Positions 1,519-50,924 of a stretch of 64,000 nt of DNA are shown piece by piece. The notes under the pieces were generated by a model. That model made no database searches, had not been told where the DNA came from, and saw nothing but the letters and a program-made list of their open reading frames with translations. A program made the position numbers and the translations under genes. The DNA comes from an uncultured virus (IMG/VR IMGVR_UViG_3300035130_000143) (taxonomy: Duplodnaviria > Heunggongvirae > Uroviricota > Caudoviricetes). Every line of letters starts with the position of its first letter. Within the stretch, counting starts at the first letter, position 1. The stretch lies in the IMG/VR virus record IMGVR_UViG_3300035130_000143; one strand, 5' to 3'.

Positions 1519-1911
1519 CTATTTATTGTCTATTTCTCCACATTTTTCCGGGCTGTTTTCTAGCTGAGAAATAAGCCGCCTGATAATAGCAGCCACGCGG
1601 CTTTTGGTAATCCCGTACACCGCGCCAATTTCGTCCAATTTCTCAAAGTCTACCACACGCCGTTTGAGTATATCGCGCTCGCGGGGAGCCAGGATATCCT
1701 GTTCATGCGCGCCGGTCTCATCGCGCCGCAACCGCTCGACGATAGCGTCGTAGTGCGGCGTGATCTTGGCCCGATAGGCGCATAATGAATCGGCGTTCAC
1801 CTCGCCACGCTCAATATTGCCCTCAAGCCTGCCGTTTCGCAGGTAGGCAAAAACAGAGTGAGGGCCTATCCCCAGCCTGCGCGCCGCTTCAGATATTGTC
1901 AAAGTTTGCAT
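1519..1911 (-). CDS. DNA-binding protein: N-terminal excisionase/MerR-like HTH plus sigma70 region-4-like HTH
   Basis: LTISEAARRLGI...Y.RNGRL and LAPRERDILKRR...KLDEIGAVYGITKSRVAAI motifs. Confidence 0.7.
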   Translation of the reverse strand: MQTLTISEAARRLGIGPHSVFAYLRNGRLEGNIERGEVNADSLCAYRAKITPHYDAIVERLRRDETGAHEQDILAPRERDILKRRVVDFEKLDEIGAVYGITKSRVAAIIRRLISQLENSPEKCGEIDNK

Positions 1912-2058: not shown

Positions 2059-2087
2059 TTGACAGGGATTAAAATATAGTGTATAGT
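2059..2087 (+). promoter_or_regulatory. sigma70 early promoter TTGACA-17-TATAGT
   Basis: near-consensus, heads the rightward small-gene array. Confidence 0.8.
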
Positions 2088-2129
2088 TATAGGCGTAATC
2101 AAGAAACAAACACACGAGGAGATAGCAAG

Positions 2130-2330
2130 ATGATAAAGCAGGTAGTAAGCTACAAGGAGCACAGAGCAGAAATTGATAAAGCGATACGCAACCTGGAGAA
2201 CCTGCCAGGCGGGCTAAAGTGCAACTTCCTGCTCGCCATTCGCGGCCAGCAAGGCACGTTGGTAGCCAAACAATGGCTGCGCAGGCGCCCAAGGTCACTG
2301 GCAAGCAATGAGGTCTTGGTTACATTCTAA
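2130..2330 (+). CDS. small early protein
   Basis: GAGGAG SD, first gene after the promoter. Confidence 0.65.
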   Translation: MIKQVVSYKEHRAEIDKAIRNLENLPGGLKCNFLLAIRGQQGTLVAKQWLRRRPRSLASNEVLVTF

Positions 2331-2378
2331 TCCACAACACGCCGAGCCGGGGCGGCCAATCCCTGGCAAAGGAGAGAC

Positions 2379-2672
2379 ATGAATATAAATAAGGCAATGG
2401 CGAAAAGCGAGGCGATAGCGAGGTGGCTCCGGGCGCGTGATTATTGCGCAACGGATCAAATTACGTGGGATTTGATAGACGCGCAAAAGGAAATCGCACG
2501 CATCACCAAAAAGGCACTGAGAGACACTATCGCGCGATTGGATAGATACGCTGAGCAGGCGTATATAGACTCCACTGATCTCGATCTGTCTGCGCGGGAG
2601 CGCCAGAAGGCGCAGACAGAACTGAAGCGCATAAAGAAACTTAGGAGAGAGATGATGGACGGGACACAGTAG
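2379..2672 (+). CDS. small early protein (helical)
   Basis: follows repeat+SD. Confidence 0.7.
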   Translation: MNINKAMAKSEAIARWLRARDYCATDQITWDLIDAQKEIARITKKALRDTIARLDRYAEQAYIDSTDLDLSARERQKAQTELKRIKKLRREMMDGTQ

Positions 2673-2707
2673 CCGGGGCGACTAATCCCCGGCAAAGGAG
2701 AGAGGAA

Positions 2708-2902
2708 ATGAAAGAGATGCCGGTCGCAGAAATACAAATTGCAAGCCAGGTCAAGCTACCCGATAGCGAAGCCACCTACACCGTTCTCGCCAAAAAAGAG
2801 ACTGATAAAACAGTGACATTTTTATTAGAAAATAACTATTATCAAACCCAAGCAACGCAACGTTTTTTTAAAACGGCAACGCTTTGTGTCATCGCAGACT
2901 AA
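2708..2902 (+). CDS. small early protein
   Basis: follows repeat+SD. Confidence 0.7.
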   Translation: MKEMPVAEIQIASQVKLPDSEATYTVLAKKETDKTVTFLLENNYYQTQATQRFFKTATLCVIAD

Positions 2903-2947
2903 TAAACGCCGCCGTCGGGGCGGCCAATCCCCGGCAGAGGAGAGACG

Positions 2948-3160
2948 ATGAGGACGGAAAAATGTTGGTTATTTTCAGACAGAACAGAAATCACAGACAC
3001 GCCGTTTCCGCTCTCTATCGTCGCATACGGCGACGAGATAGAGATAGGGAATAGCACATACAGTATTGAGCAGGTTGAGGAAATGGTAGCCGCGCTACAG
3101 ACTGCTATAATGGTAGCGCAGTGTTATCAATCCCCGGCAGAGGAGAACTTGAAATGTTAG
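2948..3160 (+). CDS. small early protein
   Basis: follows repeat+SD; C-terminus QSPAEE is read through the next repeat. Confidence 0.65.
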   Translation: MRTEKCWLFSDRTEITDTPFPLSIVAYGDEIEIGNSTYSIEQVEEMVAALQTAIMVAQCYQSPAEENLKC

Positions 3161-3369
3161 AATCGCAACTGTCTTACCTGGAAAAATGCACACCGCCGAG
3201 AAACTATTTTTGGAAGTGTTACCTTCAGGACAGAGTACCCGCTATCCAGGCTGAAATTGATAGGCTGCGCAGATTTGCCAACAGACGAGCAGGCAAGGTT
3301 GCTGATAATGTCAATGCAAAAGCGGATGCTTTGCAGGCAAGGCTCGATACGTGTAAAGTAACGCTATAG
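3154..3369 (+). CDS. small early protein
   Basis: follows half repeat+SD. Confidence 0.6.
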   Translation: MLESQLSYLEKCTPPRNYFWKCYLQDRVPAIQAEIDRLRRFANRRAGKVADNVNAKADALQARLDTCKVTL

Positions 3370-3416
3370 TCTACCGCCGAGCCGGGGCGGCTTATCCCCG
3401 GCAGAAAGGAAAGCAA

Positions 3417-3680
3417 ATGGATACAAAAAACATCCTCAATGATTTTTTTTGGACCGATGAGGACTGGAAAAAATATGAACAAGGTACTGTTGAATTAACA
3501 CTACAGGAAATGTACACCTTGTTAAATGCTGTTGAGCTAGTTTCCAATCGTAACAGATTGAACGCTAAGCAGGTCAAAAAATGGCAAGAAATCAGTAAGC
3601 TATTCAAAGGAAAATACGAGGCTGCAATCATGCAGGCGATGGGCGGCCAATCCCCGGCAGAGGAGAAAGGCAATGTTTAA
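3417..3680 (+). CDS. small early protein
   Basis: follows repeat+SD; C-terminus QSPAEE is read through the repeat. Confidence 0.7.
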   Translation: MDTKNILNDFFWTDEDWKKYEQGTVELTLQEMYTLLNAVELVSNRNRLNAKQVKKWQEISKLFKGKYEAAIMQAMGGQSPAEEKGNV

Positions 3681-3930
3681 CGAGGAGTTTTGTACTGACA
3701 ACAATCTTAAAATCTGGCAAACGGCTCGCACCTTACGCCGCGTGTGGGAAATTGATCCAATCTCTGGTGCAGTTGTTGAATACCGCGACGAAATATACAA
3801 AAAGTATCGTGGTCGTTATCACTGGTATAGCCACCTTGATACTACCTGGAGCAATCCAGATTTTTGCTACGGGCCTGGTGCGGGCAAAATGTCAGAGTGC
3901 CCACCATTGCCGCCAGAACTGATCGGCTAA
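3673..3930 (+). CDS. small early protein
   Basis: follows repeat+SD. Confidence 0.7.
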   Translation: MFNEEFCTDNNLKIWQTARTLRRVWEIDPISGAVVEYRDEIYKKYRGRYHWYSHLDTTWSNPDFCYGPGAGKMSECPPLPPELIG

Positions 3931-3976
3931 TACCTGGCGCCGCAGCCGGGGCGGCTAATCCCCGGCAGAGGAGAGA

Positions 3977-4222
3977 GTGATGACCAAAAAAGAAAAGGTA
4001 AAGCAAATCATCCTGAGTGGTCCAGCTCGTACCAAAGCAAGAAACATTGCACTGGCATATCGGCGCAGGCACAAAGAGCATGTTAGCCGCTCCACCGTCC
4101 TCGCAGCACTAAGCGAATTGCGTGACGAGGGATTTGTCAGGCGCGGGTGGGGACGTGGGCGAAATAGCAGATGGGATATAGCCGGGGTGCCCAACCTCAA
4201 TAGAGGCGAGAGTGATGTATAA
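3977..4222 (+). CDS. winged-helix-like DNA-binding protein
   Basis: VSRSTVLAALSELRDEGFV motif; paralog at 37361-37612. Confidence 0.65.
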   Translation: MMTKKEKVKQIILSGPARTKARNIALAYRRRHKEHVSRSTVLAALSELRDEGFVRRGWGRGRNSRWDIAGVPNLNRGESDV

Positions 4223-4631
4223 CGTCACAGATAAAATCAATATCTCTGCTGACGCGATTCGGAGCAGAGCGCGCCAGCTTAAATTAGACACTCTGGACGA
4301 TGTGGTAGCCTACGATCTGTGGGATGCTCAGTGCCGCGAGCGTCCCAAAACGATAGCGGGACAATTCTATCATGTGGCGACTGACCGCCAGAGAACGCGG
4401 GTGTTAAATCTCGCGGTGAGGAAGTACAATAAGCAAATAACGCCACACCAAAAGAAATTGATACTCGCATTTTCAGCAAAACTTGGCGGCGAGGCAGCAA
4501 TTGAACGCCTGACGTATGATGGCCCACGGCTGGGGATTTCGCCACGGGATGTACCGCCCAGTAAAGACTTTGATTCATTAGCTGGGTTGCTCTACGCAGT
4601 AGCCCTAGAATGGCTCAACGAAAAAGACTAG
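4215..4631 (+). CDS. early hypothetical protein
   Basis: ~138-aa ORF within the array. Confidence 0.65.
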   Translation: MYNVTDKINISADAIRSRARQLKLDTLDDVVAYDLWDAQCRERPKTIAGQFYHVATDRQRTRVLNLAVRKYNKQITPHQKKLILAFSAKLGGEAAIERLTYDGPRLGISPRDVPPSKDFDSLAGLLYAVALEWLNEKD

Positions 4632-4663
4632 CCGACGCGACTAATCCCCGGCAAAGAGGAGAA

Positions 4664-4894
4664 ATGATGCTAAAACTGAGTGAATACAAAGAAAGGGTCG
4701 TAGGAATTTGCCAGGAGTTAGGGGGCAGGCTGCCCTACGAGATAGAAGACATTGAAGCCGATGATTGGCAAGCCCTTGCCAGCGAGCTAGCAGAGCTCGC
4801 CAGTTTTGTGAGTGGTCAAGCAAGCCGACTGGCTGCTTACGCAAGCAATGTGAAGCGCCGGGGTAGTCAACCCCCGGCAAGGAGAGAACGATGA
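4664..4894 (+). CDS. small early protein
   Basis: follows repeat+SD. Confidence 0.65.
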   Translation: MMLKLSEYKERVVGICQELGGRLPYEIEDIEADDWQALASELAELASFVSGQASRLAAYASNVKRRGSQPPARRER

Positions 4895-5052
4895 ACGTTA
4901 AATCAACAGCGGACAAAGCCATTGAAATCGCCAATCAGCGCGGCGGGCGCGTGGCAATCGAATACGGTCTTGCCCTCGCCTGCAAGGGGCTGGGCAGCGA
5001 CTTTAAAAATAAAGTCCGGCGTGAGTTGCGCCGCCGGGCGTATCGCATATAG
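4891..5052 (+). CDS. small early protein (53 aa, MNVKSTADKAIE...; not in the ORF track)
   Basis: repeat+SD then ATG, open to TAG 5052. Confidence 0.6.
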   Translation: MNVKSTADKAIEIANQRGGRVAIEYGLALACKGLGSDFKNKVRRELRRRAYRI

Positions 5053-5086
5053 CCAGGCAGTAAGCGTCAGCAGAGGAGAAATTGAA

Positions 5087-5278
5087 ATGAACAAACTAAC
5101 CATACCAAGATTCCCAATCCCAACAGACGAACAAGCTATTGACGCATTCATCGCGGCATGGAATCGCTGCGCTGTCTGGGGGATCGAGATGACACCAGAA
5201 ATGATGCAACCGTCATTACTGGATGAGGAAGACGACCTACATGACTGGTTTGATAATCAAGAGGAGAACGAACGATGA
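5087..5278 (+). CDS. small acidic early protein
   Basis: GAGGAG SD; acidic C-terminus. Confidence 0.6.
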   Translation: MNKLTIPRFPIPTDEQAIDAFIAAWNRCAVWGIEMTPEMMQPSLLDEEDDLHDWFDNQEENER

Positions 5279-5490
5279 ATGACAAAACACAGTACGCCAA
5301 AGAATGCCTGAACAAAGCCAGCCATGGCGAGCACGAAATCGCCAGCATTATGAGCGCAGTTGCAGCCGCGCTGGAAGTGGTAGAGGCGCAACAAACCCGC
5401 ATCGCCACGCTAGAGGCGCGTCTTACCAAGCTCAACGCCCGCCTGCAGGCCGAGATTCACAGGCGGCAAAATAATGAAAATAATCACTAG
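5275..5490 (+). CDS. small coiled-coil protein
   Basis: SD, ATGA overlap. Confidence 0.6.
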   Translation: MNDKTQYAKECLNKASHGEHEIASIMSAVAAALEVVEAQQTRIATLEARLTKLNARLQAEIHRRQNNENNH

Positions 5491-5710
5491 AATACAAATC
5501 ACCGTTCGTCACAATGACGAATATCACAGTGCAGAAAAAGACGTGCGAGAGCCAGCGCGCAAGGCGCTCGTTGATGCGGTAAAAAAGCCGCAGGAATGGA
5601 CATTGCAAAATGAGATAACGCACAGCGGCATGACGTTTATGTCATTTGAAAGGCAGAAAAATGAAACAACAACGGCGCGGGGCGACCAACCCCGGCAAAG
5701 GAGAGAGTGA
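5474..5710 (+). CDS. small early protein
   Basis: ORF within the array. Confidence 0.5.
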   Translation: MKIITRIQITVRHNDEYHSAEKDVREPARKALVDAVKKPQEWTLQNEITHSGMTFMSFERQKNETTTARGDQPRQRRE

Positions 5711-5874
5711 TGAGGTGTAGAAAGTGCAGGACGTGGATGGAAGAAAAGCACACAACAAAAACTATGACAATTCAACAAAGCGCGGTAAAATATCCAGTTT
5801 CACATTACGCGTGCCTTAACTGCAAAACAAAAGCTGTCAGTTACAATGGCGGCGCTCTCAAGTGGAGCAACTAA
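5710..5874 (+). CDS. small zinc-ribbon protein (54 aa, CxxC...CxxC; not in the ORF track)
   Basis: repeat+SD then MRCRKCRTWM...ACLNCK. Confidence 0.6.
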   Translation: MRCRKCRTWMEEKHTTKTMTIQQSAVKYPVSHYACLNCKTKAVSYNGGALKWSN

Positions 5875-5916
5875 CACAAACAGGCGCGGGACGATCAACC
5901 CCGCGCCAAAGGAGAA

Positions 5917-6198
5917 ATGATGAACGCACAAAACAGACGCAACATGGCAAAAATGAGACAGATGTACAATCCAGATAGTGGCGACCTGGCAGTCGGCGCA
6001 AATGGTCAATTCATCAAGGTAACATGGGGAGAGTTTGCCATGTTGGAAATGATAGCCGACCAACAAAGGGAAATTGATGAACTTCAAGCACAGGTAGCGC
6101 GCTTGCTGAACGCAGTACCCAGCGCAGGCATTGTAGTCGAGCAGTCAGCGGAAACAATGCGCGACTGCGTAGCTTTGAAAATTGATAGTATAGGATAG
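5917..6198 (+). CDS. small early protein
   Basis: follows repeat+SD. Confidence 0.65.
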   Translation: MMNAQNRRNMAKMRQMYNPDSGDLAVGANGQFIKVTWGEFAMLEMIADQQREIDELQAQVARLLNAVPSAGIVVEQSAETMRDCVALKIDSIG

Positions 6199-6230
6199 CA
6201 AGCGGCGCGGGATGCGCCAGAGGAGAAACC

Positions 6231-6425
6231 ATGAACAAATTTAACATTAACCCAAGCAACAACTACGAACGTATTGACAACAGCGACGTGTTTACCGGCC
6301 AGCAGCTTTTGAACTTGCTGGAAATAGCGTCGCCAGATATGCAGGCTGTGATTTTGCTGGGCTGTATGCCAACGGACAAACCCCCAACGCACCCCGGTAC
6401 AAAATACGGTCCAGCAGAGGCATAG
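6231..6425 (+). CDS. small early protein, last of the array
   Basis: short hairpin+SD. Confidence 0.6.
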   Translation: MNKFNINPSNNYERIDNSDVFTGQQLLNLLEIASPDMQAVILLGCMPTDKPPTHPGTKYGPAEA

Positions 6426-6442
6426 CGCACATGTCTAATCCA

Positions 6443-6466
6443 GGCCCCCGCCCCAGGGGGCTTTTT
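6443..6466 (+). terminator. rho-independent terminator
   Basis: GCCCC...GGGGC hairpin + T run. Confidence 0.7.
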
Positions 6467-6478
6467 GCTATTTGGGGG

Positions 6479-6507
6479 TTGACGCCGTGTAATACCTGTG
6501 ATATAAT
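6479..6507 (+). promoter_or_regulatory. sigma70 promoter TTGACG-17-TATAAT (probably leaderless transcript)
   Basis: consensus -10; ATG at 6514. Confidence 0.75.
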
Positions 6508-6513
6508 CGTTTT

Positions 6514-6672
6514 ATGAACGGTAATACAAGCACATCGTTTCGATTGCCAAAGGAATTACTTGAGCGCCTGCAAGAAACTGCTAAGGCGCTTGATTTGAAT
6601 ATGGCTCAGGCCATTCGCAGGGCTATTTTGGAATGGCTTGAGCGCAACGAAAAGGACGATGGGAATGATTAG
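6514..6672 (+). CDS. ribbon-helix-helix (CopG-like) regulator, 52 aa, not in the ORF track
   Basis: TSFRLPKELLERLQETAKALDLNMAQAIRRAILEWL pattern. Confidence 0.75.
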   Translation: MNGNTSTSFRLPKELLERLQETAKALDLNMAQAIRRAILEWLERNEKDDGND

Positions 6673-7090
6673 CAATCATACCAAGATTGAAGCAAGGCTA
6701 TTAGTTACCCAGGCGATAGAGAGTGGCTCTATACCGAAAGCGAGCGATGTCAAATGCAAACGCTGTGGCAAGCAAGCATACCACTATCATCATAATGATT
6801 ATACCAAGCCGCTTGATATTACGCCGCTTTGCAGAAAATGCCATGTGATTGTGCATACCGAGCTTAACAAACAGCGTTTCAAGGAATTACAAGACAAAAA
6901 ACCGGATATAAAATTCATGAACGCAACTGAGTTTAATCTCATGACAGGAATTTTCAGATATTTGAAGATTCTCAGAAAATATCAGAGCATTATAGTAGTA
7001 AGACATGGTAAACCAGTATTAGAAATCAAGTTACCAAAAGGTAGTGGCGATATTCTTGAACAATGGGGCTTAAAGCAAGAAAGACGATGA
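6659..7090 (+). CDS. HNH-like zinc-binding domain fused to a Phd/YefM-like C-terminus
   Basis: CKRC...HHNDY...LCRKCHVIVH; MNATEF...IIVVRHGKPVLEI. Confidence 0.6.
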   Translation: MGMISNHTKIEARLLVTQAIESGSIPKASDVKCKRCGKQAYHYHHNDYTKPLDITPLCRKCHVIVHTELNKQRFKELQDKKPDIKFMNATEFNLMTGIFRYLKILRKYQSIIVVRHGKPVLEIKLPKGSGDILEQWGLKQERR

Positions 7091-22717: not shown

Positions 22718-22830
22718 ACTAAAAACTTAGTGTGCATCCAGGTTTTATTCTGCAAGCAGATACCAGGTTCCTGGTTCACAGTAGTGCATTTCATCGCACT
22801 AACTCCCCAGGCAAGCATCGTCTGTTTGAC
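22689..22830 (-). ncRNA. putative TnpB omegaRNA/tracr-like scaffold overlapping the tnpB 3' end and running into the first repeat
   Basis: GCCTGGGGAG...GTGAACCAGGAA (resembles IS605/IS607 omegaRNA motifs) and a hairpin pairing with the repeat 5' end. Confidence 0.6.
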
Positions 22831-24025
22831 GACTCACTAAAGCGGCCAGGTTCAATGCCGCATTTTCGTCTCTGTCAATGACACCGCCGCAACTATCACA
22901 ACGGTATTCCCTGTCTGACAATTTCAAATCCGACTTGATTGCTCCGCACATCGAACAACGTTTACTCGACGGCTCCCACCTATCAGCCAGCATGACCTTG
23001 CTGCCAACCCAGCGAGCTTTGTACTCAACCTGCCTGCGCAGCTCTCCCCACCCAACATCGCCTATAGCCTGCGCCAGACAATGATTTTTCATCATCCCGC
23101 TGACGTTCAAGTTCTCAAGAACAATGACGGATGGTTTTAATTGAAAAGTCAGGTAAGAACTGATTTCGTGCAATGTGTATTTACGAGCATTGGCAAGATC
23201 AAAGCAAGCTCGTTGCAACTTAGCTTTGGTTTTCAGCCAGTTTGCGCCGCCTTTCTTTCGCCTTGCTAATTCACGGTTCAGTCTATCAATTTTTCTCTGT
23301 GCATTTTTTAGATGTCTTGGGTTTTCAAAGACCTTGCCATTGGAGCACACCGCAAGGCTCTTTATTCCAAAATCAACACCGATAACCTTGCCACTTGTTT
23401 CCAGTTGTTCAATTTCTTCCTCTACCAATACTGAGATAAACCATCGTCCTGCATGCTCTGAAACTGTAGCGTATGTTCCATATTTCGCAGCATCGGTTGG
23501 GATGTAGTCTCGCTCCTTGAGTTTGATAAGGCCAATGCGGGTTAAGCGCACATGGTCAGAGTAAACTTTTGTGCTGGTCAATTGGAATGATTTCCCATCC
23601 TTGTGTCGGCTTTTGAACTGAGGATAACCAGGGTCAAGTTGGAATCCTTTGCGACCTTTTCTCAACCGTTTCCTACAATGCTTCTCCCACTTTCCAGACC
23701 TTTTCAAATCGGAGATACGCTTGACAACCGTGCCGTCTTTCTTCTCCTTAAAATACCGAGTGAAGGCACTGTCTAGGTTTCTGAAAGTTGCCTCTGTTAT
23801 AGCGTAGGGCACTGCTACCACCCAGGGGCATTGTTCATGCTTAAGGGCATTAAAGGCTTTCTTTTGAGCCAGCTTGCTAGTTGTCTCTTTTTGAGCATAT
23901 CTGCGCTCATGGTCTGCCAGTGCCCAATTGTAAACAAATCGAGATACGTCTGTACATTGCTTCAGAAACGCTCTCTGCTTATCATTAGGGTCAAGCTCTG
24001 TTTTATATGCTCGTAAAATTTTCAT
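22799..24025 (-). CDS. tnpB: RNA-guided endonuclease TnpB (IS605/IS607 OrfB; Cas12-like), RuvC triad intact, no tnpA nearby
   Basis: RAYKTELDPN N-terminus; GVDFG, VLENLNV, DRDENAALNL; CSMC...CDSC zinc finger. Confidence 0.95.
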   Translation of the reverse strand: MKILRAYKTELDPNDKQRAFLKQCTDVSRFVYNWALADHERRYAQKETTSKLAQKKAFNALKHEQCPWVVAVPYAITEATFRNLDSAFTRYFKEKKDGTVVKRISDLKRSGKWEKHCRKRLRKGRKGFQLDPGYPQFKSRHKDGKSFQLTSTKVYSDHVRLTRIGLIKLKERDYIPTDAAKYGTYATVSEHAGRWFISVLVEEEIEQLETSGKVIGVDFGIKSLAVCSNGKVFENPRHLKNAQRKIDRLNRELARRKKGGANWLKTKAKLQRACFDLANARKYTLHEISSYLTFQLKPSVIVLENLNVSGMMKNHCLAQAIGDVGWGELRRQVEYKARWVGSKVMLADRWEPSSKRCSMCGAIKSDLKLSDREYRCDSCGGVIDRDENAALNLAALVSRQTDDACLGS

Positions 24026-24042
24026 GCTCATCAATCATCATA

Positions 24043-27392: not shown

Positions 27393-27890
27393 TCACTGCA
27401 TCTCGTCACGTCGCTGCAAGACCAGCGACCACAGGAAGCCGCCCAAGACCTTTGCCCCAAATTGCTTGAGACAAATGTCCCATAGAATCGGGAGCCCAAA
27501 GGCCCCGACGGGGAACGCCAGCGAGTCAACCGCTGACGACAGCAGATTGCTTCCGTTGATACGCTTCCAGCGCGGCCTGTCTCGCAGGGCGTGATAGAGC
27601 ATCGCGTCGGCGGCCCCGGCCAGGGCAAACGCCGCGAACGAGGCCAAGGCAATGCGCCCGGCGTTGCGATTCAAAGCGTAGGACAATATCGATCCGCTGA
27701 TTATGAGCAAGACCATCTTGCGCCATAGTTTGTCATGCCGCCAAGCGTCATGTAATCCATCGCGGGCCGTCAAGTCTAGTCCGATAAATGCAAAAGCATT
27801 AAATACACTCGCATTCGGCCCAAAATGGGCCGTCACCAAGTTGGCCGCCACGATAGCAACCAGGTACAAAGTTATGTAAAGCATTTTCAA
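27393..27890 (-). CDS. VUT/YhhQ-family (queuosine precursor) transporter
   Basis: AIVAANL...GLDLTARD..H..W, IALAS..AF, RINGSN..S..VDS..F, KV.GG..W. Confidence 0.85.
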   Translation of the reverse strand: MKMLYITLYLVAIVAANLVTAHFGPNASVFNAFAFIGLDLTARDGLHDAWRHDKLWRKMVLLIISGSILSYALNRNAGRIALASFAAFALAGAADAMLYHALRDRPRWKRINGSNLLSSAVDSLAFPVGAFGLPILWDICLKQFGAKVLGGFLWSLVLQRRDEMQ

Positions 27891-31034: not shown

Positions 31035-31991
31035 TCATTTCTTCACCTCTGGCATTTCGCGCCATTCGCGCCCGTCGAGCAAATGTCCGGCACGCTTTTT
31101 TCCAACCCTAAAACAAATGGTTCCGTCTTCAAATACGTGTTCTGGCGTGCTTGGTTTTAATGTATCATTGGACTGATCCGCACCTTGCCATTCCCCATTC
31201 TGCTTATGGAAATAACTCATCCCTGCCGCCTGGCACTGGTCACGCAACGAACGAAACCAATCAGGGTGTGTCGGGCGTGCGCCTGGACCAGTCTCGCCGC
31301 CGACAATTGTCCAGTCTAGGGGTTGTTCGCCGGGATAGACCGGTCCGCTTTCCGACCACCAATCATAGCTGCTTGCGCCTATGTACTCTTGCAAGCTGAT
31401 TGGCCCTAGTAGCGGCTCGCAACTCACAAACCGCACTGCCGCCGGCGTTTGCAAAAGTAGCGGTATGCGCTCGTCGGCGGTCTGTTGGTTCTCAGCCGTG
31501 ACGCCAAGCCAGACGTTGGGAAGCGGCCAGATTACATCACCGTAATTCATTGGTCTGCCACACGTTCCAGATAGCCTAAAAAACAGCCCACGCATAGACT
31601 CCCAGACCTTGCGCCGTCTGAAATTGGTTGTCAAAAAATCTAATACACGATGCGGTCTTTTGGTCAAGACTTGAAATGTGTGTTGACCGCCCATCAGCAT
31701 AACGCCAAAGACCATGTTCAGAAAATCGTCATCAACGTTTCTATGAAACAAATCACCCATCGAGCACACAAACACCATGCGCGGCTTGCGCCACTTCAAC
31801 GGTTCGACTAGCCGATCATGACGCAACGTCACCTTGAAATTGTCCGGTGTGGGTGGGTAGCCATAGCGCCCGGCCAAACGTCTACTCATGCGCTCTGCGT
31901 AGCAGTTGCGGCAACCTGATGAAATTTTGGTGCAGCCGTGAACGGGATTCCACGTCTCGTCCGTCAACTCAATTTTAGTTCTTGCCATCAT
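31035..31991 (-). CDS. DUF5131 (phage Gp37/Gp68) radical-SAM-like protein
   Basis: TWNPVHGCTKISSGCRNCYA, FVCSMGDLFH, LTKRP, RFVSCEPLL, IVGGETG. Confidence 0.9.
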   Translation of the reverse strand: MMARTKIELTDETWNPVHGCTKISSGCRNCYAERMSRRLAGRYGYPPTPDNFKVTLRHDRLVEPLKWRKPRMVFVCSMGDLFHRNVDDDFLNMVFGVMLMGGQHTFQVLTKRPHRVLDFLTTNFRRRKVWESMRGLFFRLSGTCGRPMNYGDVIWPLPNVWLGVTAENQQTADERIPLLLQTPAAVRFVSCEPLLGPISLQEYIGASSYDWWSESGPVYPGEQPLDWTIVGGETGPGARPTHPDWFRSLRDQCQAAGMSYFHKQNGEWQGADQSNDTLKPSTPEHVFEDGTICFRVGKKRAGHLLDGREWREMPEVKK

Positions 31992-32926
31992 TCTTTCCTC
32001 TTGGGTCTTTCTTGTGCCGCGTCTTGTTCCATATTTCCCAATTCTCAAAAAAGCGCTGCTCGCGCTTACTCAATTTATCCCACGCGCTCGGCTCTGGCTC
32101 TGGCGGCGCGTTGAGCTTGTCGTGCGCCGCCCGACACCTGGCGCACATAACATCGCCCGGTTCTCCGTCACGAACCACCCACACCGCGCCGTCCTTGAGT
32201 TGTACGCCCTCGCAGGGATAGCGGTCCCCTGGAGAACACAGCGCCCGCGCCTTGTCCATACTGTTGTCCACCACGGGAATGTGGACAATCGGTGGGCGCT
32301 TCCACGAATCAGGGCCGGAGCGGGCAAGGACTTTCATTGCTCTAGTGCAACTGGACGCAGTTTTCAGGAACGAATATCAAATCTTGCTGCGCCACGACCA
32401 CCAGACTGCGCTTGAAAAAAACCTCATGGGCTTCAAGGTCGTTCTTGGCCTGACGACCACGCCAGACGCAGGGCAGAAACGGGCCGCCGCGATAGATGAC
32501 GGTTCGGCGCGCTTTGATCTCAGAGCGCAACTCATCTCTATCCATTGACTGGCCTGCCGATAACCAGAACCTTCCTCGCGGGCGTTTCTTCCCCTGACAT
32601 GAAATCGATTCTACGCTCTATGGTTTCTGGGAACACATGTTTCACAGGAACCAGTTTGCAGACAAGAGAAATGTCGTCAAATTCTTCTATTGTTACGATA
32701 ATCTCACCGCCGTGCTCGGTTCTCAGTACTGTCAGTTGTTCTATAAGAGTATCCAAAGTCATTTTGTGGTGCTCCTTCGTAACCCTGGTTGCGTAGCCAT
32801 TCGGCCACGCTATGCTTGCGCAGTTCGGCGTCAGTTAAATCGTTGAATCTTTCGGCCACGCGCAGACGAATAGCACGCCTGGTCTTGGTGGAGTAGCGCA
32901 CGCCGTTGATGAGACCAACAGCGGCC

Positions 32927-37041: not shown

Positions 37042-37377
37042 ATGGATAGACTTGACGAGATTCGCGCAAGACACGAACGCGTCATGGAGTGGTCGAACAG
37101 ACGCCAGCGCGGAGTATCAACTGCGCGTGAGGACATCGGTTATCTTCTGGGGCTTCTGGTAGAGCATCCCGCGAGCGAGCCGCCTGGGGACAATCGGGTG
37201 GTCATAGTGCGCGTGAGTGGTAAGCGCATGGCCGGGCTGTATCAGCGCGGGCAGTGGTTTGTGTACCAGCGTGTTGGCTTTGCTCCCAGGGGAGATGTGG
37301 AAAGTTGGCAAGAACTTCCCCCGGTTGAGGGCGTGTGTACTCCGAGGGCACAAAGGGGTTATGATGGCAAAGACTAA
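37042..37377 (+). CDS. hypothetical protein with a DUF551-like C-terminus
   Basis: PASEPP...V.SWQELPP; paralog at 30712-31038. Confidence 0.55.
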   Translation: MDRLDEIRARHERVMEWSNRRQRGVSTAREDIGYLLGLLVEHPASEPPGDNRVVIVRVSGKRMAGLYQRGQWFVYQRVGFAPRGDVESWQELPPVEGVCTPRAQRGYDGKD

Positions 37378-37612
37378 AAAAGAGCGGGTGCGGGCGCTGA
37401 TCCTGGCGCGGCGTGGGCAGAATGTCAAAGCGCGTACCATCGAGGATGATTACGTTATTGCTTACGACGACGATGTTTCTCGGTCCACGGTGGCGAGCGT
37501 GTTCCAGGAACTGTGCCAGGCTGGGCTTGCCTGGTGGGGATGGGGCGGCGGGCGTAATGCGTGTTGGCTTGTGTGTAGTTGTGATTTGTTTACGAGGTCG
37601 GAAGATGAATGA
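37361..37612 (+). CDS. winged-helix-like protein, paralog of 3977-4222
   Basis: TKKERVR...VSRSTV....EL...GWGGGRN. Confidence 0.65.
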   Translation: MMAKTKKERVRALILARRGQNVKARTIEDDYVIAYDDDVSRSTVASVFQELCQAGLAWWGWGGGRNACWLVCSCDLFTRSEDE

Positions 37613-37724: not shown

Positions 37725-38243
37725 ATGGACTTGAACGATTGGGCGCAAAAGGCATTAGAGAAGTGCGATCCGGCAAGCAAGCCGGTTTCGCTATACTGGT
37801 TTGAGCATGTGAAATATGATTCGGATGTGGACTGGTGCTATGAGTGCGCCATTGCCCTCATGGAATATTTCAACGGCGAGACCGAGCGCCCCGAAACGGT
37901 CTGGGAAGACGAGGAGATTCCCGATTGGTCCCCTGGGCCTGATAGCGTTGCTCTTGCTGGCGGCTGGGCAATCGAATCGGACACCGCGAGATTTTGCGCT
38001 CGGTGCGGGCGCAGGCTGGAATTTTGCCCGACTGACTATTTTTGCAAGAGTGAGCTGGAATATTATGAGAATTACACCCCCAGGGGTGACTGGCGCAGTT
38101 TTCAGATATTCCTGGATGCAATGGATGAATACTGCGCCTCAGGACGGGACTGGTATTCGCGGGCATTGAGGCTTGCCGAGAAATACCTGGGGACCGAAAC
38201 TATTGACCGGTGGGGACGGCGCACAGTTGAGGTAAAAGGCTAG
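37725..38243 (+). CDS. hypothetical protein
   Basis: 172-aa ORF. Confidence 0.65.
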   Translation: MDLNDWAQKALEKCDPASKPVSLYWFEHVKYDSDVDWCYECAIALMEYFNGETERPETVWEDEEIPDWSPGPDSVALAGGWAIESDTARFCARCGRRLEFCPTDYFCKSELEYYENYTPRGDWRSFQIFLDAMDEYCASGRDWYSRALRLAEKYLGTETIDRWGRRTVEVKG

Positions 38244-38806
38244 TGAACCAACAGACTCCCCTCGTCATCACAGCCCAGACCATCCCTGCCGCCGAAGGAA
38301 TGAAAGTGCATTTTTCACAGAAGTCCAACGAATGGGCCACGCCTCAAGATGTGTTTGACAAACTGGATAGCATGTTTGGGCCATTCTCTTTGGACCCCTG
38401 CGCCACTCCCGAAAACGCAAAGTGCGAGCGGTTTTTCACGGCAAAAGAAGACGGGATAAAACAGGACTGGGGTACACACACTGTTTTTATGAATCCGCCA
38501 TACGGTAGGCAGATCGGGCGGTGGATTGCCAAAGCCTACCACGAAAGCTTGCAGGGCGCTATGGTGGTCTGCTTGATTCCAGCACGTACAGACACAGCAT
38601 ACTGGCATGATTACGTTATGCGCGCTGGCGAGGTTTATTTGCTACGCGGGCGCATAAAGTTCGTGGGGAGCAATAGTTCTGCGCCTTTTCCATCTTGCGT
38701 TGTGGTTTTTTATCCAAGAGATCATGACCAGTCACCTCTTTTTTTCTCGCTTGATTCACGTGCGGAGCGATGGGAAAGATACCACGAGGACGATATTCAT
38801 GAATAA
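38243..38806 (+). CDS. phage N6-adenine DNA methyltransferase (Dam-like)
   Basis: EWATPQ, LDPCAT, FMNPPYG, LIPARTDT..WH, GRIKF. Confidence 0.92.
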   Translation: MNQQTPLVITAQTIPAAEGMKVHFSQKSNEWATPQDVFDKLDSMFGPFSLDPCATPENAKCERFFTAKEDGIKQDWGTHTVFMNPPYGRQIGRWIAKAYHESLQGAMVVCLIPARTDTAYWHDYVMRAGEVYLLRGRIKFVGSNSSAPFPSCVVVFYPRDHDQSPLFFSLDSRAERWERYHEDDIHE

Positions 38807-38927
38807 CAATCAAGTCCCTTTAGTCGCGACGGCGCAAACCATTCCCGGATTTGTGGCATGCGATCTGAGCGCGCCGGGTTTATCCGGTCCCTGGAAAAGC
38901 GGACGTTTGAGCAGAGGACATGGTGGA

Positions 38928-39476
38928 ATGACGAAAATGCTGATGCTTGACTTAGGTGCTGGATTAGGTGGCGCGTCTGAGGCAATGCGCCGACGCGGGT
39001 GGAATGTCGTAACGGTGGACATCAACCCGGAGTTTAACCCCGACATCGTGGCTGACTTACGCACGTGGTCCTGGGACGGCCCGCGCCCAGACCTGGTGTG
39101 GGCCAGCCCGCCCTGTGATGAATTTGCCAAGTTCGCCATGCGTTGCTGGTATGACGTGGATGCACTGGCTACCCCTGATGTGTCGCTGGTGTTGGCCTGT
39201 AAGCGTGTCATAGATGAGTGTCACCCGCGATTCTGGATTATCGAGAACGTGCGGGGAGCCATACAATTTCTTGAACCGATATTGGGCACGCCGCGCAAGT
39301 TTCGCCCCTATTATTTGTGGGGACACTTCCCATGCTTGGGTGATGTGAAAAGGCACACATGGGGCACAAAAACAAAAAAACTATCCTCTACCGCAAAGGC
39401 CGAACGCGCTGAGATACCATACTCGTTGAGCAAGGCTGTGGCCCTGGCGATAGAGCGACAGGGTGAATTGTTGTGA
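38928..39476 (+). CDS. compact C5-cytosine methyltransferase-like protein
   Basis: LDLGAGLGG, WASPPC, IIENVRG. Confidence 0.8.
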   Translation: MTKMLMLDLGAGLGGASEAMRRRGWNVVTVDINPEFNPDIVADLRTWSWDGPRPDLVWASPPCDEFAKFAMRCWYDVDALATPDVSLVLACKRVIDECHPRFWIIENVRGAIQFLEPILGTPRKFRPYYLWGHFPCLGDVKRHTWGTKTKKLSSTAKAERAEIPYSLSKAVALAIERQGELL

Positions 39477-39606
39477 CTGATAGGCCAACCATAGCCACAT
39501 TTTGTTCAGTGGCGTGGGTAAAGGGGACCGGGGCGCGCTTATTGCCTGAACGCGCCCCGGTTGAGGAGAAATACTACAAAAAGCTGATGGTTGAGGATAT
39601 TTTATC

Positions 39607-40308
39607 ATGAACGGTGTGGAAATGTCAAGAGTTATTTACGGCGACGCCCGCGAGATAGACCTGGCGCAGTTTGACCGCTACCAAACGATAGCGGCAGACC
39701 CGCCGTGGTTTTACAACGATCAGCGCAAAGTGCGCAAGGATGGCGCTACCCCCACGGCAGGTATAGGCGCGTGTCATCACTATGACCAAATGACCGTTGA
39801 AGAAATCTGCGCCATGCCCGTTGCCCAATTGGCCGCATCCCGCTGTCATCTCTACCTCTGGGCAACCGCTCCACTCTTACCCGACGCCTTGCAGGTCATG
39901 AACGCCTGGGGCTTTGAATACGCGACTGTTGCCTTTGCCTGGGTAAAGATGAACCCTGGCGCGTGGGGCGAGGCGCAGATCAGGATAAATCAACTAGATA
40001 TGTTTGGAACGCCGGACGAGCAGGTCGCGGCGTTCATGGATAACCTGGCTTTTTTCGGTCCTGGTTTTTACACCGGCTCAAACGTAGAACTTGTGCTGCT
40101 CGGACGGCGCGGTAAACCGTTCGCCCACGCCAAGGGCCGGAAAGCCGCGCAGGCCATCTTTGCTCCACGAGGAGAACACAGCGCCAAGCCTGAGCGGGTG
40201 CAAGACTTGATAGAATGGATGTACCCTGGCGCCGCGCCGCGTCTTGAGCTTTTCGCAAGGCGAGCGCGAGTAGGATGGGATGTATTTGGCAATGAAATAC
40301 AAGATTGA
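39607..40308 (+). CDS. MT-A70 family adenine methyltransferase
   Basis: ADPPW, LYLWAT, AWGFEY...WVK, EHSAKP, LELFARR..GWDVFGNE. Confidence 0.92.
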   Translation: MNGVEMSRVIYGDAREIDLAQFDRYQTIAADPPWFYNDQRKVRKDGATPTAGIGACHHYDQMTVEEICAMPVAQLAASRCHLYLWATAPLLPDALQVMNAWGFEYATVAFAWVKMNPGAWGEAQIRINQLDMFGTPDEQVAAFMDNLAFFGPGFYTGSNVELVLLGRRGKPFAHAKGRKAAQAIFAPRGEHSAKPERVQDLIEWMYPGAAPRLELFARRARVGWDVFGNEIQD

Positions 40309-40347
40309 CGCGCCGGTTGTAAAATCGGCGCTAGAGCCACGAGAGCT

Positions 40348-41175
40348 GTGGCAAAGGCGGCTGTGGTGAGTAAATCAGTAGCGCAATACATTGTAGACGG
40401 ATTAAAATTGGAATTAAACCCAAAACTAGAGCAGCACACTGAAACTGATCTTGATACCGTATGCGCTATAACCGGTGAGCGCATTACTCAAGGCATTTTC
40501 TGGAAACATGTAATTCCTTCCTCAACAGGAGAATATTTGGGCCTCATGAGCGGTATGGCGTTCCCGTACCTGGGTATCCCCGCTGCCATGGCGTTCAAAG
40601 GCAGTTGGAACATGGGAAGCCGTCTGATTTTTGAGGACGGAACCATGTATCATCCGTACATTTCTACTGCAAGCGCAGAGAAAAGCGAACGTACCTGTTG
40701 GCGCGACCTGGTGCGCGACGTGTGGCCTGCGCGCCAGGGGCAATCGTGTCTCTGCATCATCACCGATGACTACAAAAAGAAAATTTGGCCGATGGCGCGG
40801 ACTGGAGAATTGGGTATGAATACACCAGTTCTTTTGTTAGATTCAGACAGGCTGCCGCCATCAAAAAACATAGCCTCACCCAGGCGCCTGGTTAGCCGTC
40901 TGGCATTACATAGATTGACAATTAACTGGGAAAAATTGATAGCGGTTCTCGATTTTGTCGAAACTGTTCGCGCTGCTGGCTTCGGTAGACAGGCTATCTC
41001 GGAAAGCCTGTTTACGTTCTACGCGGCGCTGATGGAGAATCAATCAACTGTGTCGAGCTGGGAAGCTCGATTGGTCGAACTGCGCGAGACGCCAGAGTTT
41101 GCCGTGGCGCTATTGATTGCGCAAAAAGATGTCGCTGAACAAGGCAAACGAGAAAAGCAACTTAGTTTTTTATAA
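40348..41175 (+). CDS. csf1: type IV CRISPR large subunit Csf1 (Cas8-like), putative
   Basis: position upstream of csf2, size, CAITG motif, KKKIWP motif. Confidence 0.65.
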   Translation: MAKAAVVSKSVAQYIVDGLKLELNPKLEQHTETDLDTVCAITGERITQGIFWKHVIPSSTGEYLGLMSGMAFPYLGIPAAMAFKGSWNMGSRLIFEDGTMYHPYISTASAEKSERTCWRDLVRDVWPARQGQSCLCIITDDYKKKIWPMARTGELGMNTPVLLLDSDRLPPSKNIASPRRLVSRLALHRLTINWEKLIAVLDFVETVRAAGFGRQAISESLFTFYAALMENQSTVSSWEARLVELRETPEFAVALLIAQKDVAEQGKREKQLSFL

Positions 41176-41186
41176 GGAGAATAAAA

Positions 41187-42629: not shown

Positions 42630-42630
42630 C

Positions 42631-43377
42631 GTGGACGAGATTGCACGCGCTGGATTTTTAGCGCATGCCATGTTGCCTGTATACAAGCGGCGCGTGGCGC
42701 GGGCTAGAGAGTGGATTCGTCGGGCATTGGAGTTGTGCCATAGTCCATACGTGGCATGGAGCGTGGGCGGCAAAGATTCATCTGTCATGTTGGATTTGGT
42801 GTTGGAGCAATCGCCCATAGAGGCCCGCGTGTTGGTTAGTGGAGAGACCAGGTATTTATTTCCAGAATTTAACGGAATAATTGAATGGTGGCAGAGAAAG
42901 CATGGAAACAAGTTGATGGTCTCTCTTATTGAAACTGATAGGGTATGGTCAAGCAACATGGCGTTTGATGAACAGCGCAAGGCCGGGCGCAACGACATCA
43001 TGAACTTACTTCCGACAGAAGCGCATGACCTGGTTTTTTTAGGCTTGCGCGACAAGGAAAGTAATCGGCGCGAGTTAGCCAATAAGCGCGGCATTATCCG
43101 TCGCTATGCACAATCGCGAAAAAAGAATATCCGGGGAACTTACGTGTGTGTACCAATAGCCAAACTGACCACAAGGGACATAGCAGCATACACCGTAACT
43201 AATCAAATACCAGTATTCAATGTGTATACAGAATGCGGATTTGATGAACGCACAACTCTGCGTCTGACGGGAGATGCGGTGCGGCAAATGGCATTTCAGC
43301 GATTGCGCATAACTAACCCAAAAGAGTATAATGCCTTGCTGCACAGATTTCCCGAACTCAACCAATGGAATGGATAA
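42631..43377 (+). CDS. cysH: CysH/PAPS-reductase-family PP-loop protein of a type IV-B locus
   Basis: YVAWSVGGKDSSVM, FLGLRDKES.RR, PIAKLTTRDI. Confidence 0.85.
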   Translation: MDEIARAGFLAHAMLPVYKRRVARAREWIRRALELCHSPYVAWSVGGKDSSVMLDLVLEQSPIEARVLVSGETRYLFPEFNGIIEWWQRKHGNKLMVSLIETDRVWSSNMAFDEQRKAGRNDIMNLLPTEAHDLVFLGLRDKESNRRELANKRGIIRRYAQSRKKNIRGTYVCVPIAKLTTRDIAAYTVTNQIPVFNVYTECGFDERTTLRLTGDAVRQMAFQRLRITNPKEYNALLHRFPELNQWNG

Positions 43378-44768: not shown

Positions 44769-44783
44769 TGCGTTGAGGCGGCT

Positions 44784-50913: not shown

Positions 50914-50924
50914 GGACATTTTAA

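Follow-up and report, generated by a model that had tools for sequence, protein, structure and literature searches.

The window analysed here, a 64,000-nt stretch of DNA from an uncultured virus, contains 17 small ORFs, 14 of which have a copy of the same repeat directly before them, and the locus raises the question of what this repeat is and what it does. As a preliminary description of the locus had proposed, the ORFs stand between a single promoter (2059-2087) and a single terminator (6442-6463) (Table 1). On the + strand these two rank highest up to position 6470 (promoter, 11 of 12 matches; terminator with T run); the next promoter, at 6479-6507, has an equal score (11/12). The -10/leader stretch (2079-2115) was found again in runs X1 and X2, on further contigs that differ from the window on either side of it. 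The ORFs were said to be unrelated to each other, and no BLASTP match was found among the 17 at E<=1e-5.

The array itself proved real. Allowing at most two mismatches to the strict pattern GCCGGGG-N8-CCCCGGC, a search of the 64 kb yielded nine matches against 0.52 expected, a number equalled in 0 of 100 shuffles; eight of the nine lie on the + strand, between 2346 and 5696. The copies were also used to build a covariance model, which, run unfiltered on the whole window, returned 10 sites at E<=3e-4, every one on the + strand (2336-5917), and weaker sites at 6194 (E 0.12), 5028 (E 1.2) and 3107 (E 2). The model also scored an unrelated long hairpin at 39517, and the decayed copy at 4181 was detected by eye and by direct-repeat search only. 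Altogether there are 14 copies, 10 with a hairpin and four decayed, each ending 10-14 nt 5′ of an ATG.

The hairpin was predicted by RNAfold at eight of the 14 sites (2346, 2672, 3381, 3945, 4857, 5675, 5884 and 6203); at 2914 a competing hairpin was predicted and at 4631 only 4 bp. One or both arms are lost at 3127, 3637, 4181 and 5052, where the ribosome-binding site (RBS) is kept. In the predicted folds of copies with the canonical hairpin the RBS is unpaired. Two further observations of the preliminary description, a covarying stem at 5884 (unit 13) and ORFs reading through the repeat, were borne out: g3 and g5 read through decayed copies, g9 and g13 through intact ones. Six of the intact copies are plain hairpins, two intact ones are embedded in coding sequence and four copies are decayed, so that the fold is dispensable at some genes.

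Table 1. Promoter, genes (g), repeat units and terminator of the array, with window coordinates. L1, first loop of the pseudoknot.
Feature	Position	Strand	Description	Score
Promoter	2059..2087	+	sigma-70-type promoter of array, TTGACA-17-TATAGT	11/12 matches
g0	2130..2330	+	66 aa, first gene; own leader, without repeat; no family	
Unit 1	2339..2378	+	pseudoknot-competent, GCCG:CGGC, L1=1; stem 2346-2352/2361-2367 with one G.U; then RBS	56.7 bits
g1	2379..2672	+	97 aa; stop overlaps first base of unit 2	
Unit 2	2665..2707	+	hairpin + RBS; flank and loop non-complementary, hairpin only	-15.5 kcal/mol, z -2.7
g2	2708..2902	+	64 aa	
Unit 3	2907..2947	+	pseudoknot-competent, L1=2; U.G in stem; competing GCCGCC/GGCGGC hairpin predicted	
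g3	2948..3160	+	70 aa; reads through half-unit 4, end QSPAEENLKC	
Unit 4	3128..3153	+	right half only, CAAT-CCCCGGC + RBS	
g4	3154..3369	+	71 aa	
Unit 5	3374..3416	+	pseudoknot-competent, GCCG:CGGC, L1=1	
g5	3417..3680	+	87 aa; reads through unit 6, end QSPAEEKGNV	
Unit 6	3630..3672	+	decayed left arm; right half + RBS retained	31.2 bits
g6	3673..3930	+	85 aa	
Unit 7	3938..3979	+	pseudoknot-competent, L1=2	
g7	3980..4222	+	80 aa; weak winged-helix hints; paralogue 37217-37612	
Unit 8	4181..4214	+	left arm intact, right arm decayed; within g7 end	
g8	4215..4631	+	138 aa, orphan	
Unit 9	4624..4663	+	weakened stem (GCCGACG); 4 bp predicted	
g9	4664..4894	+	76 aa; reads through intact unit 10; stop overlaps next start (ATGA)	
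Unit 10	4850..4890	+	hairpin only; loop TAGTCAAC	-17.5 kcal/mol, z -2.75
g10	4891..5052	+	53 aa	
Unit 11	5052..5086	+	decayed, RBS retained	E 1.2
g11	5087..5278	+	63 aa	
g12	5275..5490	+	71 aa; without repeat; start overlaps g11 stop	
g13	5474..5710	+	78 aa; without repeat; reads through unit 12	
Unit 12	5668..5709	+	hairpin, 7-nt loop	43.2 bits
g14	5710..5874	+	54 aa; two CxxC pairs, zinc-ribbon-like (from sequence)	
Unit 13	5883..5916	+	covarying 8-bp stem GGCGCGGG/CCCGCGCC + RBS	-18.1 kcal/mol, z -4.5; 23.2 bits
g15	5917..6198	+	93 aa	
Unit 14	6204..6230	+	short variant, 5-bp stem GGCGC/GCGCC + RBS	E 0.12
g16	6231..6425	+	64 aa, last gene	
Terminator	6442..6473	+	intrinsic terminator-like hairpin + T run, array end	

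The full form of the element, about 30 nt long, reads A-N-[NNCG]-A-[GCCGGGG]-[CGNN]-NWAT-[CCCCGGC]-A. Besides the 7-bp stem (S2) it contains a 4-bp helix (S1), formed by the opening 4 nt of the loop with the tetranucleotide immediately 5′ of the stem; judged by covariation, S1 and S2 together give an H-type pseudoknot. L1 has 1-2 nt over 7 bp, L2 0 nt and L3 4 nt over 4 bp, lengths that may be compatible with the groove-spanning rules of such folds. S1 is possible in four of the ten intact window copies (2346, 2914, 3381 and 3945). The preliminary description had overlooked both the pseudoknot of the full form and its spread across many unrelated phages.

Two scans of IMG/VR, each leaving one helix free, bear on the fold. 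In the first the stem was fixed and the flank and loop positions 3-4 were free; the core GCCGGGG-CGNNNNAT-CCCCGGC was present in at least 121 contigs. Among the matches listed, flank and loop pair fully at L1=1 in 65 of 91 unique 8-nt-loop contexts and at L1=2 in nine more; six pair types are represented. Of the 91 contexts, 68 have Watson-Crick pairs at both of the free outer positions (mean of 2000 shuffles 24, maximum 39). In the second scan flank and loop were fixed and the stem was free, and 20 of 27 loci had a perfectly complementary 7-bp stem, in seven different sequences. Counted over 103 rows, 93.3% of cells were paired, against 84.8% in shuffles and 31-55% with the partners slid; both-sided changes occurred in eight of 11 pairs (2/4 in S1, 6/7 in S2), and none of these measures was reached in shuffles (0/500). 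In this count the outer S1 pair is AU in 42, GC in 20, CG in 18 and GU in six. These counts are inflated by related contigs, and conservation of the fixed motif parts is uninformative because the search patterns fixed them. On the sense strand G.U pairs are seen, as at 2346 and 2914 of the window. The fold is under selection on the gene-sense strand. Strand-specific covariation and G.U pairs are signs of an RNA, which makes the RNA-signal role suggested earlier plausible; none of the RNA runs contained the region.

The element is common to otherwise unrelated phages and is no private repeat of the window phage. Sorted by their flanks, 98 loci among the matches listed form 66 mutually unrelated groups; the types with pairing are found in 21, 17, 6, 6, 2 and 1 of these, and an unpaired member is present in 18. 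No genes shared among the carrier phages were found. The element stands a few nt after the stop codon of a small gene and 1-5 nt before the next RBS. At 58 loci, an RBS with start codon and ORF of at least 40 aa was present within 35 nt in 42 cases in sense and in one case in antisense orientation, and an ORF end within 25 nt upstream in 43 and five cases, respectively. The sense bias was seen only by this mirrored test of RBS and stop codon; the cruder longest-open-frame test, over 100 nt on either side, gave no sense bias upstream (26 sense, 35 antisense) or downstream (28 and 33). Same-strand mini-arrays of 2-3 copies occur at 11 of 79 other loci. In some phages a promoter, a T-rich run or a tRNA gene follows the element instead of an RBS, therefore a role tied solely to translation start cannot be general. 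In searches with the covariance models of Rfam 15, with limits of E 5 and E 10, no family matched at the motif, the element was not found in cultured phages, and no published description was found in the literature searched. A genome-wide scan with the version including the RBS gave only 55 single matches, with unrelated loops.

The repeat had also been taken for a recombination site, and the comparison of relatives supports this. A relative in a second wetland run, X2, represented by short contigs (depth 3-4.5) not linkable into one genome, shares 3128-3953 with the window at 99-100% identity (no difference in 3128-3468, one in 3445-3605, two in 3802-3953). Its divergence points, 3128 and after 3953, both lie within repeat loops (units 4 and 7). 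At 3128 the relative has a full element where the window has half-unit 4, and what precedes this position in the relative has no counterpart in the window. Other element-bearing phages break there too: among 119 IMG/VR loci listed, 37 pairs were alike on both sides, seven upstream only and three downstream only, and in four in-register sets (L073/L095/L110/L131, L145/L165, L074/L143/L147 and L087/L139) the identity of about 90-100% ends at the 3′ or 5′ edge of the element. Homology between phage genomes breaks exactly at the element.

On balance we favour the reading that the window repeat is a locally amplified version of an inter-cistron RNA element widespread in phages, which would act as mRNA punctuation and serves as a crossover site. 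Two known systems had been named as analogues, and the analogy stands for the mode of action and fails for membership. PeSLs (promoter-early stem-loops) of T4-type phages are described as short conserved cassettes, composed of a sigma-70 promoter and a terminator stem-loop, that border small non-essential orphan genes and shuffle them by inter-cassette recombination (Arbiol et al. 2010, PMC2839356). The window repeat likewise borders small orphan genes, and gene gain and loss by recombination between copies is found here as well. However, no promoter-like match overlaps a repeat unit, the window copies are followed by a purine-rich RBS and not by a T run, the hairpin or pseudoknot is fused to the RBS within one transcription unit, and the element is common to unrelated phages, whereas the PeSLs described there belong to one lineage. 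The start-associated sequence (SAS) of Cluster K mycobacteriophages, GGGATAGGAGCCC, is a 13-bp repeat that contains the RBS; it precedes the start codons of some of the non-structural genes by 3-8 nt, in a single orientation, and in about half of the copies an inverted repeat adjoins it on the upstream side (extended SAS, ESAS), with imperfect 17-bp arms and a 4-13 bp spacer, and a role in translation is suspected (Pope et al. 2011, PMC3203893). The accessible part of that report mentions no pseudoknot. As far as described there, SAS is alike in position, an RBS repeat just before start codons, but the window consensus is CCCCGGC-ARAGGAGAGA, and SAS is confined to one phage cluster, unlike the window element.

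The array also resembles structured elements between the cistrons of other early polycistronic messages. RNase III sites between T7 early genes and the 5′ stabiliser hairpins (STAB-SD) of Gram-positive mRNAs define and stabilise mRNA segments. A T7-type RNase III site has about 20 bp of double-stranded RNA, for which the stems here (5-8 bp, typically 7 bp) are too short. REP/BIME elements of enterobacterial operons are repeated intergenic hairpins at which recombination takes place and which stabilise the mRNA upstream of them; they are host genomic repeats, whereas the window motif was absent from the two genome sets searched (5 and 401 genomes). H-type pseudoknots are known from the T4 gene 32 leader and from viral recoding signals. 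The element shares their order S1-L1-S2-S1′-L3-S2′, the L1 of 1-2 nt that crosses a 7-bp stem and the A/U-rich L3; it differs in being intergenic, without slippery site or in-frame extension downstream.

The products of the array give little indication of function. No Pfam or PHROG family was found for the array ORFs; g7 matched GntR at E 0.003, below the cut-off, and g8, the largest ORF, was the only member of its kind among 5.8 billion clusters. The host-takeover or anti-defence role assigned to them earlier is therefore without support.

The element could instead be the operator of a trans-acting RNA-binding protein, either a global translational repressor for early-gene shut-off or an endonuclease cutting at or near the RBS, comparable to RegA and RegB of T4. 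Bases of the loop and the junctions are more conserved than pairing demands (among the matches listed, A at -7 in 65/91, the L1 A in 59/91, A at +22 in 65/91), and the site adjoins the RBS. But the window yielded no RNA-binding or RNase family, and no protein recurs beside the element across 80 loci; as the carrier phages share no genes, any binder must be host-derived. We consider an operator unlikely.

Covariation does not distinguish RNA from single-stranded DNA, and same-strand orphan ORFs split by a folded repeat, with junctions exactly at the element, would also suit a cassette array whose sites are folded in single-stranded DNA for a dedicated recombinase, like integron attC. Yet the array is preceded by a sigma-70 region 4/HTH protein gene and followed by genes for an RHH and an HNH protein, no integrase was found near it, and by inspection the motif consensus lacks a core resembling GTTRRRY, the attC core. 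The element is moreover tied to the spacing of stop codon and RBS, and the half-copies of the window fit homologous or illegitimate exchange, which makes such a site very unlikely.

Still lower we rank a selfish or neutral repeat spread by recombination, or simply a terminator or 3′ hairpin belonging to the preceding gene, the pseudoknot being devoid of any role. Decayed copies are tolerated, and T-rich, terminator-like tails follow a minority of family members elsewhere; but no T run follows any window copy, the terminator-like sites of the + strand (3846, 4782 and 6442) all lie away from the repeats, and because both helices covary across 66 unrelated groups, selection must act on the fold. 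A processive antitermination signal of nut/put type in early operons beside the immunity region is hardly credible: the element often lies near Cro/CI-type HTH repressors (21) and integrases (15), the commonest neighbours in 80 loci, with 1-3 copies per genome, and at locus L004 downstream of a divergent repressor and promoter, but here one operon has at least 10 copies, none between promoter and first gene, in some phages the element directly precedes promoters, and its architecture is presumably unlike boxA/boxB or put.

As punctuation in a polycistronic message, the favoured RNA element would work through a compact, mechanically stable knot that may keep the RBS single-stranded, independently of the sequence and the ribosomes upstream, and that may protect the RNA segments on either side, as a cap, from exonucleases or 5′-end-dependent decay. 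Because the same 30-40 nt or so stand at many gene borders, in the phage's own genome and in co-infecting phages, crossover would occur at the element, and homologous recombination there could move whole genes together with their translation signal. This process may have built the array of 17 tiny orphan genes in the window phage. Tentatively, the element may represent an undescribed class of phage RNA pseudoknots that would serve as a universal inter-gene adapter, at once mRNA punctuation and a common crossover point for trading small accessory genes, of which the window would be the most extreme known expansion.

Fourteen copies of the repeat were located in the array, and all 14 end 10-14 nt ahead of a start codon. 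The pattern GCCGGGG-N8-CCCCGGC, with up to two mismatches, had nine matches in the 64 kb, whereas 0.52 were expected. A covariance model made from the window copies and run unfiltered across the whole window revealed ten sites at E ≤ 3e-4, every one on the + strand between 2336 and 5917, and weaker sites at 6194, 5028 and 3107; the copy at 4181, found by direct-repeat search, brought the total to 14. The 17 ORFs between promoter and terminator (53-138 aa, + strand) gave no pair matching at E ≤ 1e-5 in BLASTP comparisons among themselves; three of them, the first gene (g0), g12 and g13, have no repeat. The preliminary description of repeat copies, each directly ahead of a small unrelated ORF, between one promoter and one terminator, thus holds for the array.

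Positions of the array signals and of other features in the window
Feature	Position	Strand	Remark
HTH/sigma-70 region 4 protein	1519-1911	-	130 aa, divergent; HTH domain N-terminal
Array promoter	2059-2087	+	Consensus promoter, 11 of 12 positions; opens the array
-10 region and leader of array promoter	2079-2116		
ORF g7	3977-4222	+	
Terminator-like hairpin and T run	6442-6463	+	Closes the array
Second strong promoter	6479-6507	+	After the array terminator
Ribbon-helix-helix (CopG/Arc-like) gene, then HNH endonuclease-like ORF	6514-7090	+	Right after the array terminator; own extended -10 promoter
TnpB/Cas12f-like IS605 OrfB gene	22799-24034	-	Within the phage genome
Vut_1 transporter-like ORF	27393-27890		Outside the modification cluster
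DUF5131	31035-32048		Outside the modification cluster
Paralogue of g7	37217-37612	+	33 kb from g7
DNA-modification gene cluster	37725-52892	+	Dam, MT-A70, two N6/N4 methylases, PAPS-reductase-like protein, BCS1-type AAA ATPase, dCMP deaminase
GC hairpin	39517-39571	+	11 bp (ACCGGGGCGCG...CGCGCCCCGGT), then GAGGAGAAA; about 40 nt ahead of the MT-A70 methyltransferase gene at 39607

In the predicted folds, the expected hairpin with an unpaired ribosome-binding site forms at eight of the 14 sites. Site 2914 has a competing predicted fold, just 4 bp are left at 4631, and one arm or both are gone at 3127, 3637, 4181 and 5052. The covariation previously noted in the stem at 5884 was confirmed (GGCGCGGG/CCCGCGCC; -18.1 kcal/mol, z -4.5), as was the reading of some ORFs through the repeat: two, ending in QSPAEE, run through decayed copies and two others through intact ones. 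The GC hairpin ahead of the MT-A70 gene scored E 0.0026 with the covariance model, yet it is distinct from the repeat element. The modification cluster, together with DUF5131 and the Vut_1-like ORF, suggests from gene content that the DNA may be heavily modified. The divergent HTH/sigma-70 region 4 protein may be a regulator of the array promoter.

Pfam and PHROG searches of the array ORFs yielded no family passing the threshold, and the anti-defence or host-takeover role proposed for these genes found no support. For the largest array ORF, an orphan, no relative was found among 5.8 billion protein clusters. There were weak winged-helix hints for g7, and g14 has a CxxC pattern like that of a zinc ribbon. 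The sole array ORF having any relative within the window is g7, whose paralogue is 38% identical over 79 aa (E 2e-11), and the array ORFs have no homologue in the IMG/VR loci carrying the element.

The element was sought in cultured phages, bacterial genomes and metagenomic viruses. In 50,697 cultured-phage records the array had no megablast match; with short-query blastn one of two motif versions had no match and the other 12 matches at chance level. The strict motif was not found in five bacterial genomes, nor in 401 genomes of one class. The version including the ribosome-binding site occurs as single copies in a few viral or metagenome contigs with the same CCGAG flank: seven single-copy loci in metagenome contigs comprised five true family members and two bacterial chance matches, and 55 single matches in genome contigs, with unrelated loops, were set aside as chance. 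A core scan of IMG/VR (GCCGGGGCG-N3-4-ATCCCCGGC, with the flank and loop positions 3-4 left free) revealed at least 121 loci. Among the matches listed there were 109 unique contexts, and the conserved span extended from the A at -7 through the A just past the stem; a typical family member reads ACCGA...CGGTATAT. The 98 listed loci that combine an 8-nt loop with sufficient flanking sequence fell into 66 groups of unrelated flanks.

The window's flanking proteins have no relatives in IMG/VR. Small ORFs of varied kinds lie 3′ of the element, and most of the 54 tested belong to no PHROG family. Cro/CI-type HTH proteins, at 21 of 80 loci, and tyrosine integrases, at 15, were the most frequent neighbours, which points to the early regions of temperate phages as the probable carriers. 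L004, a complete 29.6-kb viral contig, is laid out like the window, with a divergent repressor and promoter followed by small genes accompanied by three variants of the element. Two or three same-strand copies were present in 11 of 79 loci; the window, with 14, is the largest array known here, far above any other locus seen.

Matches with a 7-nt loop on the same 7-bp stem (viral contigs L089, L090, L094, L109, L113, L116, L159 and L185) have the loop CGCTGAT, CGTAGAT or CGCAGAT, and another small hairpin stands before it; in L089 and L185 a tRNA-Thr gene lies downstream. Only two of 18 such matches showed flank-loop pairing, and they were omitted as a different class.

In 65 of the 91 unique listed contexts the first four loop nucleotides can pair in full with the 4 nt ending one base 5′ of the stem, and nine more contexts pair with a 2-nt gap. 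The pair types were ACCG:CGGT (29), GCCG:CGGC (17), CCCG:CGGG (7), CGCG:CGCG (6), GGCG:CGCC (1) and AGCG:CGCT (1), and four further contexts pair through G.U wobble. The two unconstrained pairs were Watson-Crick in 68 of 91 contexts, compared with a mean of 24 and a maximum of 39 in 2000 shuffles. Two cautions apply: part of the motif is set by the search patterns, and such counts are inflated by related contigs, a point addressed by the analysis of the 66 groups. A second scan, with flank and loop fixed and the stem left free, revealed 27 loci; in 20 of them the 7-bp stem was fully complementary, with seven sequences represented, while two had one wobble or mismatch, and five were non-complementary and chance-like. 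A formal pairing count over 103 rows, including these five chance rows and seven window copies, found 93.3% of cells paired, compared with 84.8% after shuffling and 31-55% with slid partners. Both-sided changes occurred in eight of 11 pairs, and none of 500 shuffles reached any observed measure.

The covariation of S1, the 4-bp flank-loop helix, argues that it forms together with the 7-bp stem S2, since a 4-bp helix with an 8-nt loop is no match for a 7-bp GC stem. The pattern of pairing implies an element made up of S1, L1 (1-2 nt, usually A), S2, no L2, and L3 (4 nt, NWAT); these sizes would fit classical H-type pseudoknot geometry. On this comparative evidence we regard the pseudoknot as very probably real in the element family. 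In the window S1 pairing is possible in only four of the ten intact copies (2346, 2914, 3381 and 3945). The element matches no Rfam 15 family, either in the window or at 12 further loci. A CRISPR-repeat mimic, a riboswitch, a ribozyme and a ToxI-like RNA were rejected on this lack of an Rfam match and on architecture, which differs from that of each.

Sense-strand G.U pairs are present in the element. In a mirrored strand test on 58 loci, a start codon with its ribosome-binding site and an ORF of 40 aa or more came within 35 nt downstream in 42 loci on the sense strand versus one on the antisense strand; upstream, an ORF ended within 25 nt in 43 versus five. The longest open frame in 100 nt on each side showed no strand bias (upstream 26 sense versus 35 antisense, downstream 28 versus 33), and we count this as a contrary result; the measure separates strands poorly for genes of 50-100 aa in GC-rich DNA. 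As a rule, 11-16 nt separate the end of the upstream stop from the stem, and the following start comes 11-25 nt past it. Since the stop codon stands 6-11 nt before S1, a recoding or readthrough role was considered; it was rejected on one example inspected by eye, L096, in which the upstream ORF and the downstream gene lie in different frames. A minority of elements have no ribosome-binding site after them: some lead into a promoter or a T-rich run, and in L118 and L121 a tRNA-Trp gene begins 7 nt 3′ of the element, so that the fold is not tied only to translation starts. A tRNA suspected to follow the motif in L075 was not confirmed.

The proposal that the repeat is a recombination site gained support when relatives were compared. 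X2, a wetland run differing in sample and study from X1, the likely source run, contains 11% of the region's words; no RNA run is listed as containing the region. Its contigs, aligned to the window at ≥80% likeness, are short (depth 3-4.5) and not linkable into one genome. They match the window at 3128-3468 with no differences, at 3445-3605 with one and at 3802-3953 with two. In the first contig about 590 nt upstream of 3128 are unlike the window, and the 30 letters before 3128 are the left half of the full element that the window misses, the first 22 of them being absent from the window; at 3128 the window has the right half only, joined to the end of g3. The third contig leaves the window after 3953, two bases inside the loop of the repeat copy there (unit 7), and continues with another loop and arm and with other sequence downstream. 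The shared block is thus bounded, at the two ends observed, by positions within repeat loops. The downstream ribbon-helix-helix gene region is only about 83% alike in X2 (32 differences in 189 nt), which would fit a recent transfer of the 3128-3953 block.

In X1, two other contigs share only the element with the window, the rest being unrelated sequence. Among the 7021 pairs of 119 listed IMG/VR loci, 37 were alike on both sides of the element, seven upstream only and three downstream only. Four sets were aligned in register (L073/L095/L110/L131, L145/L165, L074/L143/L147 and L087/L139), and in each an identity of about 90-100% stops where the element begins or ends. Judging by these breakpoints, recombination junctions probably fall at the element by preference. 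Short contigs of X1 and X2 repeat the array promoter's -10 region and leader with 4-5 differences, next to other -35 flanks and other first genes, so that exchange may also occur at the leader.

The fold of the element is selected on the sense strand, the element lies between cistrons, it is common to unrelated phages, and genome junctions fall at it. In a polycistronic message it would act as punctuation between cistrons: the ribosome-binding site beside it would stay free, unaffected by structure or ribosomes further upstream, and the flanking RNA segments would be protected. In other systems 5′ stabiliser hairpins and intercistronic processing sites protect RNA segments. No element precedes the first array gene, whose leader is its own; this suits a function between cistrons better than one at primary 5′ ends. 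Identical over some 30-40 nt, including the ribosome-binding site, the units would provide crossover points, and a gene exchanged there would travel together with its own translation signal. For the specific combination of punctuation and stabiliser we put the chances at even. Its rivals are an operator bound by a protein, an attC-like site acting as DNA, an antitermination signal and, lastly, a neutral repeat or plain 3′ hairpin.

We class the element with the repeated regulatory cassettes at phage gene borders. Compared with the PeSL cassettes of T4-type phages (PMC2839356), it would work alike, but both the defining promoter and the terminator tail are missing from it. It also resembles the start-associated sequences (SAS/ESAS) of Cluster K mycobacteriophages (PMC3203893), but its sequence and fold differ. 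In contrast to both systems as described, the element is spread across unrelated phages. A literature search found no description of the motif, and the core RNA motif appears to be undescribed so far.

Phage genomes are mosaic, yet the sites of exchange between unrelated phages are rarely identified. Here a defined 30-nt element with a covariation-backed fold stands at such junctions in several phage lineages, with 14 copies arrayed in one genome. Should the RNA role prove right, the pseudoknot and ribosome-binding site would form a compact, portable unit to try out in operon design, and the element would offer a handle for locating accessory-gene regions in viral metagenomes. Modular phage evolution by short shared signals becomes directly testable.
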